A stretch of DNA of 61,567 nucleotides. It comes from a virus (Duplodnaviria > Caudoviricetes). The translations under genes were made by a program, and so were the position numbers. Each line of letters begins with the position of its first letter. Within the stretch, counting starts at the first letter, position 1. This document shows, one piece after another, positions 29,380-30,113 of this stretch. The notes beneath the pieces are model-generated. The model saw only the letters and a program-made list of their open reading frames with translations, was not told the DNA's origin and ran no database searches. The DNA is taken from the IMG/VR virus record IMGVR_UViG_3300030108_005279, positions 1 through 61,567 of that record, one strand, 5' to 3'.

Positions 29380-29400
29380 TGACTTTACCTCCTGTTACAA

Positions 29401-29490
29401 TTATTTATAATTGTATAGGAGTTGTGCTTCAGCGTAGATGATCGTCAAGAAAATCACGCTTGCAGCGAGTATTTCTATGACAGTTAACAT
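29401..29490 (-). CDS. 29-aa hydrophobic single-TM peptide
   Basis: MLTVIEILAASVIFLTIIYAEAQLLYNYK; starts 1 nt after the DUF4278 stop; GGAGG RBS. Confidence 0.6.
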   Translation of the reverse strand: MLTVIEILAASVIFLTIIYAEAQLLYNYK

Positions 29491-29491
29491 G

Positions 29492-29635
29492 CTACTTGCC
29501 TCCTGCTACTGTTCTTACAACCTTGAGACCACGATACATTAGATCATGATTTCGAGCTTGCTCAGCTTCGGCAAGCACTTTTGCGTTGTATTCCTTAGAG
29601 TCGTACTGAACTCCTCTGTATGTGACTTGTGCCAT
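29492..29635 (-). CDS. DUF4278-family small protein, 47 aa
   Basis: MAQVTYRGVQYD...LMYRGLKV (two YRG motifs); AGGAG RBS; downstream of a glutamine riboswitch as known for DUF4278 genes. Confidence 0.85.
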   Translation of the reverse strand: MAQVTYRGVQYDSKEYNAKVLAEAEQARNHDLMYRGLKVVRTVAGGK

Positions 29636-29694
29636 TTGGTTTCTCCTAAAGTAATTGGACTTTGCACCTTTAACTCTTTCGAGTGATCCGTGTT

Positions 29695-29740
29695 CCCGTT
29701 CCTTCAGTCGGCTTTTGCGTCTCCCGTAGGAGATGAACGA
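29695..29740 (-). ncRNA. glnA-type (glutamine-I) riboswitch aptamer 2
   Basis: CGTTC-A-TCTCC(TACG)GGAGA-CGCAAAAGCCGACTGAAG-GAACG: P1 CGUUC/GAACG, P2 hairpin and junction as in cyanophage glnA RNAs. Confidence 0.85.
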
Positions 29741-29743
29741 ATC

Positions 29744-29969
29744 CGTTCCGAGTCGGCTTACTTGCGTCTTATGGTTCAAAATTACATGATTCTTCTACTT
29801 TAGTTTTAAAGTAGTTTATCAAATCTGACTTTGATTGTTCATCAAGATATTCATCTTGTCGAACCTCTGAGGTCAAATCTTTCCACCCCTCACACTTAAT
29901 AGTCCAATGAACTGGTTCGTGGTTTGCAAGTAGAAATGCTGATAGTAAGACTTCCATAAGATGAACGAT
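29744..29969 (-). ncRNA. glnA-type glutamine riboswitch aptamer 1 with a 179-nt, ORF-containing P2 loop
   Basis: ATCGTTC-A-TCTTATGG (29961-29954)...CCATAAGA (29774-29767)-CGCAAGTAAGCCGACTCG-GAACG; perfect 8-bp P2 and 5-bp P1. Confidence 0.75.
29769..29957 (-). CDS. 62-aa hypothetical protein nested in the riboswitch P2 loop
   Basis: MEVLLSAFLLANHEPVHWTIKCEGWKD...EESCNFEP; hydrophobic N-terminus, two Cys; no obvious SD. Confidence 0.65.
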   Translation of the reverse strand: MEVLLSAFLLANHEPVHWTIKCEGWKDLTSEVRQDEYLDEQSKSDLINYFKTKVEESCNFEP

Positions 29970-29975
29970 GTGTCT

Positions 29976-30004
29976 ATATTAACACATTCATAGTATATAG
30001 GCAA
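29976..30004 (-). promoter_or_regulatory. Sigma70-type promoter for the riboswitch transcript
   Basis: TTGCCT (30004-29999)-N17-TAATAT (29981-29976) with extended TG; predicted start near 29969, the first nt of aptamer 1. Confidence 0.6.
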
Positions 30005-30010
30005 GAACTT

Positions 30011-30028
30011 TTGTAATTTGTGTTACAA
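30011..30028. promoter_or_regulatory. NtcA binding site
   Basis: TTGTA-ATTTGTGT-TACAA = GTA-N8-TAC with palindromic flanks. Confidence 0.7.
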
Positions 30029-30113
30029 TTTAATAATTTATTTAGATTTAAACAAAAATTAAACTGTTTTTAATCTAAATAATGGGTTTGACTGTCGTAA
30101 AAACCCTACAGAC

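Follow-up and report, generated by a model that had tools for sequence, protein, structure and literature searches.

Small genes enclosed by a predicted helix of glutamine riboswitch-type leaders in cyanomyoviruses

Can a riboswitch aptamer hold a whole protein gene inside one of its own helices, and what would such a layout mean for the RNA and for the protein? The question is raised by a leader in the virus record IMGVR_UViG_3300030108_005279 (Duplodnaviria; Caudoviricetes), whose 61,567 nucleotides (nt), analyzed in full and called the window below, are a 61.6-kb fragment of a T4-like cyanophage with an estimated completeness of 29%. On the minus strand, to which all coordinates of the leader refer, a promoter-like site is followed by the 5' strands of helices P1 and P2, an open reading frame (ORF) of 62 codons, the P2 3' strand with the remaining core, a compact aptamer, and a DUF4278 gene; the ORF-bearing and the compact units are called module 1 and module 2, respectively. 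The initial annotation of this stretch, made from the letters alone, had located P1, both P2 strands, a 179-nt loop, and the ATG and TAA of the 62-codon ORF, and every one of these coordinates was correct on rereading.

The nested gene and the helix around it

In module 1, the P1 5' strand CGUUC (CGTTC in DNA; 29967 to 29963) is separated by a single A (29962) from the P2 5' strand TCTTATGG (RNA UCUUAUGG; 29961 to 29954), which contains the start codon (29957 to 29955) of the nested gene. This gene (29957 to 29769; 62 codons plus TAA) encodes a small two-cysteine protein of phrog_6471, and its stop codon (29771 to 29769) lies within the P2 3' strand CCATAAGA (RNA CCAUAAGA; 29774 to 29767), the perfect complement of TCTTATGG, with 179 nt between the two strands. 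The junction CGCAAGTAAGCCGACTCG (RNA CGCAAGUA; 29766 to 29749) then carries the 5' half of the loop E motif, a mini-P3 (AG-CCGA-CU), and CG, with GAAG absent, and the module ends on the P1 3' strand GAACG (29748 to 29744), for which the next CGUUC (29739 to 29735), reached across the 4-nt linker GAUU (29743 to 29740), is an alternative partner.

Profile comparison assigned the nested protein to phrog_6471 (E value of 2.2e-17, residues 2 to 59 on profile positions 3 to 62 of 66), and a Pfam search with it returned no family. By tblastn, relatives were detected in 45 records of named phages, 43 of them with a protein coverage of 80% or more; the majority are annotated as coding sequences (CDSs) for a "hypothetical protein," the copy in Syn9 being gp196, and 332 stretches in IMG/VR encode a relative. 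Across 57 unique CDSs, which were chosen by an intact motif-bearing frame and are hence biased toward intact genes, the median pairwise ratio of nonsynonymous to synonymous substitution rates (dN/dS) over the ORF interior was 0.23, versus 0.92 and 1.48 in the other two frames, at a median dS of 1.13, where synonymous sites are near saturation. Nucleotide diversity in the same set followed codon position (18.3, 11.6, and 23.3 for the first, second, and third positions), and length differences (61 to 69 amino acids [aa]) comprised whole codons only. Moreover, in a core-seeded sample of 80 loci (see below), all 73 long P2 loops were filled by an open frame with its ATG at +9 to +12 and its stop at or near the 3' half. 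That the nested ORF is a real coding gene under purifying selection is well supported by these sequence comparisons, and the dN/dS below 1 that the initial annotation had proposed as a check on the loop was obtained.

Structure prediction with AlphaFold2 from a 36-sequence alignment yielded three helices with a mean predicted local distance difference test (pLDDT) score of 84, and H13, H17, W18, C22, W25, L46, and K53 were invariant in the 36 sequences. None of 55 Foldseek matches in the PDB reached an E value of ≤0.001, and the best score in the ESM Atlas was 0.79, under the useful range, the clusters being viral "hypothetical proteins." In the nested proteins labeled family A, H13 and H17 are invariant besides both cysteines, and a metal or disulfide site is possible. 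The N termini of nested proteins are hydrophobic, resembling signal or lipoprotein leaders but without a positive n-region.

The enclosing helix was examined at several levels. The minus strand of the window has nine CGTTCA sites and two riboswitch 3' cores, and their sole long-range combination with a real stem was 29967/29766, with 8 Watson-Crick pairs; the frequency of an 8-pair stem was 5.5e-5 when 200,000 pairs of sites separated by 195 nt were drawn at random from the window. In the alignment of the 57 relatives, the riboswitch letters that flank the ORF did not vary (57/57) while its synonymous sites are near saturation; of the variable P2 pairs, the second, pair 14-219, was CG in 33 sequences, UA in 22, and UG in 2, and the third, pair 15-218, was UA in 24, CG in 12, AU in 6, GC in 1, and another combination in 14. 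P2 cells were paired in 95.8% of cases versus 91.3% in shuffles (reached by 0/500) and 35 to 54% in slid registers, and the covariation score was 0.152 versus 0.076 (likewise 0/500). The larger set comprised 142 unique nested aptamers with any ORF family, anchored on the conserved flanks, and contained 50 distinct helix variants; here, the six basal P2 positions were paired in 92.8% of cases, compared with 73.8% when partners were shuffled (0/1,000) and 57% and 45% in slid registers. For instance, a U-to-C change in the 5' strand of leader L008 is matched by an A-to-G change in the 3' strand, by which the stop TAA becomes TAG. G-U pairs occupy 46 of the 852 cells of this set, and the helix belongs to the RNA sense strand because such pairs would be mismatches on the other strand; an inverted DNA repeat of a mobile element was considered as an origin of P2 and was rejected on these strand-specific pairs. 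With ViennaRNA, the basal P2 pair probability exceeded 0.5 in 115 of the 142 aptamers and in 0 of 142 when the 3' strand was reversed, and in the full window leader P2 was present in both the minimum free energy and the centroid structures, with pair probabilities of 0.82 to 0.95. Selection at the RNA level on P2 and both core halves is well supported by these comparisons, and the covariation among homologues for which the initial annotation had called was found as compensatory changes at two positions, together with the excess of basal pairing.

Recurrence among cyanophages

To describe the distribution of the arrangement, IMG/VR was scanned with the 24-letter 3' core of module 1, a search that covers leaders with the exact core; at least 120 loci were detected, of which 80 were analyzed. 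Results revealed at least one nested ORF in 57 of the 80 leaders and 73 nested ORFs in total. Given as module 1/module 2, the leaders were compact/ORF (34), compact/compact (20), ORF/ORF (15), and ORF/compact (8), with 3 cut by contig ends. The window is of the ORF/compact type; an ORF in the first module is the less common situation in this sample, and a stop inside P2 is rarer still. In all 73 nested ORFs, the ATG lies 9 to 12 nt after the C of CGTTCA. Conserved core letters, namely the two halves of loop E, provide the stop in 62 of the 73, through the UAA of AAGUAAG in 15 and the UGA or UAA of CUGAAGG or CUAAAGG in 47; another 10 terminate within the P2 3' strand or immediately ahead of it, like the ORF of the window, and the last one continues beyond.

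Together with that of the window, the 74 nested proteins formed four BLAST clusters (48, 19, 6, and 1 members), and every one of them has exactly two cysteines, spaced 31 to 40 residues apart, behind a hydrophobic N terminus. Between the family of the window and the large module 2 family, hhalign gave a probability of 89% and an E value of 2.4e-6 over the Cys-to-Cys stretch, and the nested proteins of phrog_6471, phrog_504, and phrog_13397 probably represent one superfamily at the sequence level.

Among close IMG/VR relatives, the ORF was found between CGTTCA and the CGCA...GGAACG core in 41 of 42 cases, the 42nd being cut by a contig end, and both halves flank the ORF in 77 of the best 80 of the 332 family matches, the other 3 being cut by contig ends. 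P-TIM68 has two compact modules and no nested ORF; in P-SSM2, module 2 alone has one, closing around a different 49-aa ORF; and two single-cell virus records, including AG-345-L05, have ORFs in both modules. Relatives of the protein of the window were also detected in P-HM1/2 and P-SSM4. The nested arrangement is shown to recur across hundreds of cyanomyoviruses, where homologous small genes can occupy either module. With the profile of the window family, 6 loci matched in 185,579 species genomes, of which four were in marine single-cell or metagenome-assembled genome records, at least one of these records (189,106 bases) also being present in IMG/VR as a phage contig, and two were weak (E values of 1e-4 and 2e-4), so that this search evidenced no cellular home for the nested family.

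In Syn9 (L248, 159492 to 160577), modules 1 and 2 enclose gp196 and gp197, respectively, and gp198 (MNTLTLIKK...), next after the leader, has no DUF4278 look by eye; a literature search on gp196/gp197 or on Syn9 start sites found nothing relevant. In leader L240 (about 340 to 400), the 5' half is duplicated locally before a family A ORF, with GTTCATCTTATG occurring twice, 10 nt apart; its AAGTTCA was considered as a P1 variant and rejected, given the local duplication and the normal ACGTTCA upstream.

Riboswitch class and sensor architecture

Module 2 (29741 to 29693; P2 UCUCC-UACG-GGAGA, GAAG present) scored 37.3 bits against the glutamine riboswitch model RF01739 of Rfam, whose gathering score is 35, in agreement with the compact second aptamer of the initial annotation. 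Other weak Rfam matches within 29600 to 30050 (freshwater-2, small nucleolar RNAs, and SAM-II) reached 12.5 to 17.5 bits, far under their gathering scores. In module 1, both P1 strands are present and invariant in 57/57 relatives, with an ambiguous GAACG partner; P2 follows directly after CGUUC-A with 8 Watson-Crick pairs; and the 5' half of loop E (GAAGUAA) is present as CGCAAGUAAG at 29766 to 29757. The consensus has a short capped P2 of 5 bp with a 4-nt loop, in place of which module 1 has the 179-nt ORF. Its P3 consists only of AG/CU around CCGA, and the loop letters vary among relatives (CCGA, UUGA, UUCG, and CCCG) with G...C kept. When natural compact counterparts in relatives were used as a stand-in for deleting the loop, module 1 of P-SSM2, which is compact and has the same flanks as the window, scored 35.1 bits against RF01739.

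In the solved glutamine-I aptamer, a three-way junction contains loop E, with GAAGUAA opposite UGAAG (PMC6698751, PMC5393176), and the terminal P1 pairs contact glutamine through C1:G59 and a G2:C58 triple (PMC6698751). Module 1 retains every ligand-contact letter despite departing from the class in its long P2, its loop E 3' half, and its Rfam score. Like glutamine-I RNAs (RF01739; gifB/IF17 leader, PMC6212724), the leader has the letters CGUUCA, a P2 directly after the A, CG(C/G)AAGUA, and GGAACG; unlike them, its first P2 closes on a 179-nt protein gene with the start and stop codons in the helix. As in the gifB leader, it lies upstream of a DUF4278 gene whose Shine-Dalgarno region can pair with the 3' part of an aptamer (PMC6212724), whereas module 1 is without the 3' half of loop E, and the leader, whose ligand binding is putative, belongs to a phage. 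Glutamine-II RNAs (Downstream-peptide motif, RF01704) are resembled in the CGCA, rather than CGGA, after the hairpin, and module 1-type sequences scored 26 to 29 bits and module 2 of the window 29.9 bits against that model (gathering score, 33); the window has no 3' hairpin bearing GGAACG in its loop, and a pseudoknot topology is not evident. According to the account in PMC6698751, P1 of glutamine-I corresponds to the ligand-stabilized pseudoknot helix of glutamine-II, and a two-piece glutamine-II riboswitch assembles upon glutamine addition, so that a ligand-dependent helix can join distant, even separate, strands, a likeness to the layout of module 1. The leader is built from elements of the glutamine-I/II riboswitch superfamily, to which module 2 belongs by score.

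glnA RNAs are reported to occur in tandem (Weinberg 2010, PMC2864571), and the initial annotation had read the leader as two tandem aptamers. Two modules in series, the second scoring in Rfam, are indeed present, as in tandem glnA (PMC2864571) and tandem glycine riboswitches, with two or three modules before one gene; the independence of the two modules is less certain, since, unlike in those systems, the cyanophage modules hold complementary halves of one motif and may interlock, and one of them holds a gene. In the window, module 1 has AGUA but CUCG in place of GAAG, and module 2 has GAAG but CGCAAA in place of AGUA. AGUA was found only in nonterminal and RAAG only in terminal modules in 94 of 94 complete two-module arrays and in one three-module array, and the only single-module leader typed as complete has both halves. 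Given this split of loop E, which in the solved glutamine-I fold joins GAAGUAA with UGAAG (PMC5393176, PMC6698751), one composite sensor is possible, in which the first CGUUC would pair with the last GAACG, the inner GAACG-GAUU-CGUUC would form a hairpin, and module 1 would contribute AGUA, and module 2 GAAG, to loop E. The hairpin with the ORF would then be one arm of a larger fold, and module 1 alone would be unable to bind glutamine. The linker from GAACG to CGUUC is 3 to 6 nt in 78 of 78 arrays, folding of the window leader gave the middle hairpin a probability of 0.96 to 0.99, and the constrained outer P1 with the middle hairpin was predicted at -77.5 kcal/mol versus -74.1 for the tandem fold, an energy gap that is small in a folding model ignoring ligand and tertiary contacts. 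On the other hand, compact modules singly reach the Rfam gathering score (35.1 to 37.3 bits), and a further 17 arrays typed as single modules may reflect truncated loci or failures of the search pattern. Between tandem and nested P1 pairing, covariation cannot decide, since all four P1 strands have the same letters and these never vary. On balance, we put the composite fold only slightly below an even chance; it would change the architecture of the sensor and leave the nesting unaffected.

This complete single-module type is represented by leaders L218 and L220 (390 to 626), which contain a single complete glutamine-I-type aptamer (AGUA, a 5-bp P3, and GAAGG) with a family A ORF in its P2; the stop TAG of this ORF lies within the P2 3' strand, and the following gene begins with MSNLKYRGAAY.

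Expression, possible switching, and competing explanations

The promoter-like site upstream of module 1 (30004 to 29976) is composed of TTGCCT (30004 to 29999), a 17-nt spacer, and TAATAT (29981 to 29976), with TG at 29984 to 29983, and its -10 box lies seven to nine bases before CGTTC; it matches 8 of 12 consensus letters and for this reason was not flagged by the promoter scan. A TAnnnT hexamer occurs close upstream of P1 in 152 of 158 unique relatives, most commonly ending 7 to 12 nt before it; TTGACT/TTGCAT-type -35 boxes were present in all 14 relatives examined; and Syn9 has a consensus TTGACT-17-TATAAT promoter ending 7 nt before P1. From these elements, an RNA start is predicted near 29971 to 29968, which would leave a 5' leader of about 12 to 14 nt before the ATG. 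The nested AUG has no Shine-Dalgarno sequence. An in-frame ATG inside the -10 box of some leaders (L171, L179, L186 to L189, L206, L221, and L229) would add about 9 residues read through P1 (MLTYLYVHLMG...), but it probably lies upstream of the RNA start. Metatranscriptome contigs from 4 runs of 4 studies partly cover 29380 to 30051, for example, the ORF interior at 29790 to 29921 with 12 differences, as contigs that show neither strand, start, nor level and in which DNA carry-over is possible; bins upstream of about 30052 were uncovered, which is uninformative.

The gene downstream of the leader (29635 to 29492) encodes a 47-aa DUF4278 (IF17-like) protein, which narrowly passed Pfam PF14105 (25.6 bits versus a curated cutoff of 25.3) and matched phrog_5049 with an E value of 1.7e-21. 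CUGAAG of module 2 (29707 to 29702) is a candidate strand pairing against the Shine-Dalgarno sequence (anti-SD), being 6/6 complementary to CUUUAG (29651 to 29646), which overlaps GGAG (29646 to 29643) of this gene. Pairing of the CUGAAG/CUUUAG type was found in 95 of 120 unique leaders; over 300 shuffles, the average was 2.6 and the highest count 7. In the comparable gifB leader of Synechocystis, a glnA aptamer raises expression with glutamine, and Klahn et al. postulate that glutamine melts a helix hiding the gifB ribosome-binding site (PMC6212724).

Taken together, these features suggest the following course of events. An early phage mRNA would start a few bases before P1, with the AUG about 13 nt from its 5' end because the promoter-like elements directly abut P1. 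The landing site of the 30S subunit would then include the 5' strands of P1 and P2, and a terminating ribosome would cover the junction as well as the P2 3' strand. During transcription of the ORF, the AUG would be free and ribosomes would load; in the folding model, the probability that the AUG is unpaired was 0.38 to 0.67 in nascent RNA of 60 to 190 nt and 0.02 to 0.04 after the 3' strand has been made. Ribosomes moving along the ORF, together with one terminating on the P2 3' strand, would hold the sensor unfolded, whereas on ribosome-free RNA P2 would close, and glutamine-dependent closure of P1 would lock P2 and keep the start site hidden. The bound sensor would withdraw CUGAAG from the Shine-Dalgarno region and turn on the IF17-like gene, as in the gifB leader. 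Expression would thereby shift toward the downstream gene at high glutamine and toward the nested one at low glutamine or under active translation. The initial annotation had argued that folding buries the ATG and that a translating ribosome melts P2; the geometry agrees, since with the start and stop codons in the P2 strands, folding of the sensor and initiation or termination on the nested ORF are mutually exclusive. In module 2 versions, the nested stop UGA lies inside the candidate anti-SD CUGAAG, and termination could therefore itself open the downstream start site.

Several observations weigh against this account. Rfam did not report module 1 within 29600 to 30050 even at an E value of ≤10, which can be ascribed to the 179-nt insert defeating the model, and the module is without the loop E 3' half (UGAAG), having CUCG-GAACG there instead. 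In P-TIM68, whose module 1 is compact, this module matched RF01704 alone (28.8 bits, under the gathering score of 33), and RF01739 was not reported at an E value of ≤1. P1 (GAACG and CGTTC) is invariant in 120 junctions and hence without covariation support, and nearest-neighbor folding gave both module-wise P1 helices a probability of 0.0. As for P2, double-changed pairs and further pair types, two of the five measures in the 57-sequence alignment, did not stand out from the shuffles (reached by 467/500 and 457/500), and the shuffle controls overstate significance because the sequences are related. In a gapless register, no base of the AUG lies within the contiguous helix in 26 of the 142 nested aptamers, with all three bases inside it in 51. 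Finally, by nearest-neighbor folding, P2 alone pairs the AUG without ligand once the 3' strand is made, and glutamine may therefore add little.

Having weighed these points, we favor the explanation as a whole, namely, an early leader with P2 around a selected gene, mutual exclusion of ribosome and glutamine-bound sensor, and a downstream switch, and consider it rather probable. Regulation by the nested layout is plausible, and we infer that glutamine may control the nested gene. Its fullest form is more tentative, and we would sooner expect it to need revision than to stand entire: a two-way toggle between ribosome and riboswitch in marine cyanomyoviruses, where a sensor, possibly with an interlocked double core, surrounds one or two small two-cysteine genes, glutamine-locked folding silences the nested gene and opens the IF17-like gene, and ribosomes keep the sensor unfolded.

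One competing explanation holds that the P2 loop is a safe harbor that tolerates insertions and that small genes move between phages by recombination anchored in the near-identical core halves. P2 would then be kept only for the downstream riboswitch, and the nested gene would be expressed from the early promoter without meaningful glutamine control. The patchy spread of the four module types among related phages, from none in P-TIM68 through module 2 only in P-SSM2 to both modules in AG-345-L05, would fit such a cassette, as would the occurrence of the same ORF family in module 1, module 2, the middle of three modules, or a single aptamer, with the C terminus rewritten by the following core; leader L042 joins the 5' end of one subtype to the 3' end of another, and the hiding of the AUG by P2 alone in the folding model points the same way. 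What a free rider would not explain is the constancy of the frame: the ATG position is fixed relative to CGTTCA in 73/73 ORFs across four sequence clusters, no nested ORF has its own Shine-Dalgarno sequence or a deeper position in the loop, and 62/73 borrow conserved core letters as the stop. The fixed ATG could be inherited if the nested proteins are of one origin, as the hhalign result may indicate, yet it has been kept through deep divergence nonetheless. We regard the cassette explanation as unlikely, though it deserves to be taken seriously.

Far less probable is a gate of the leader-peptide type. mgtL is a short ORF in the Salmonella mgtA leader whose translation decides which leader helices form, and by analogy only the act of translation would matter here, the product being irrelevant. 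A ribosome on the nested ORF must indeed melt P2, with the stop in P2 or the core, and module 2 versions terminate inside the candidate anti-SD strand. An irrelevant product is hard to reconcile with a 62-aa protein having a dN/dS of 0.23, seven invariant residues, His, Trp, and Cys among them, in 36 sequences, a mean pLDDT of 84, and two cysteines in 74/74 members, features that place the protein product itself under selection. The likeness to mgtL and to the two ORFs described in the mgtCBR leader (PMC3641672) lies in leader-ORF translation deciding between RNA helices, and the difference lies in a selected 62-aa protein inside the own helix of an aptamer rather than a short regulatory peptide. 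That the 179-nt insert is no gene, but a structured RNA domain or a chance open frame, for which the missing Pfam family, the lack of a solved-structure match at an E value of ≤0.001, and the unannotated nested ORF in the P-SSM2 RefSeq record could be cited, is highly improbable in view of the frame-specific dN/dS, the codon-position pattern, the in-frame length changes, the 73/73 open frames, and the 45 phage records that encode a relative, mostly as an annotated CDS such as Syn9 gp196.

The surroundings of the leader were also surveyed. Upstream, a terminator-like hairpin ends the preceding gene (30141 to 30114; GCCGC/GCGGC with a 9-nt loop, then AA and T7); the promoter/terminator scan, which allows loops of up to 8 nt, did not flag it. 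In 8 of 99 leaders, those of the window and a few relatives such as L007, module 2 is followed by about 28 additional nt that include a GAAA-capped hairpin before the Shine-Dalgarno region is reached (29696 to 29652 in the window), and the leader length is 61 to 62 nt in these 8 versus 29 to 38 nt in the other 91. Downstream, a 29-aa hydrophobic ORF (29490 to 29401) begins right at the DUF4278 stop and is followed by a 58-aa phrog_6192 gene (29379 to 29203; E value of 4.7e-27), both of which may share a transcript with the DUF4278 leader. Other minus-strand neighbors encode ThyX (28856 to 28218; Pfam Thy1, 159 bits), DUF6433 (31133 to 30525; 130 bits), and DUF2973 (31317 to 31096; 23.1 bits). 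In L004 (Marine virus AG-341-P01), a full-length manA RNA (Rfam RF01745, 164.2 bits; 1280 to 1479) lies directly 3' of the DUF4278 gene of the leader; no manA match at the gathering score was found in the window.

Protein genes within the loops of structured RNAs are familiar from the homing endonuclease ORFs of group I introns and from the dual-function RNAs SgrS/SgrT and RNAIII/hld. The cyanophage leader shares with them an entire ORF spanned by one helix of a functional RNA, in a loop that tolerates insertions; it differs in that its RNA senses a metabolite and in that the closing helix or the core supplies the start and stop codons. The initial annotation knew of no characterized example, and a full-text literature search, which did not extend to Ames & Breaker 2011, Ren 2015, or supplementary tables such as the Klahn 2018 motif loci, likewise turned up no account of a glutamine aptamer with an ORF in it; in PMC12379486, glutamine riboswitches are mentioned only inside deletions.

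Riboswitch aptamers are usually treated as compact noncoding units upstream of their target, and standard scans assume as much; in the window, Rfam finds only one of the two modules, which makes a case for riboswitch searches that permit gene-sized insertions in variable helices. The leader offers a natural system for studying how translation and ligand-dependent folding may compete for one RNA, and abundant cyanophage small proteins that are unannotated or "hypothetical" (phrog_6471 and phrog_504) would be tied to the nitrogen status of the host. If the toggle proposed above is true, the conserved loop E letters double as stop codons of nested genes, and one short early mRNA would choose between two protein programs according to the nitrogen state of the host.

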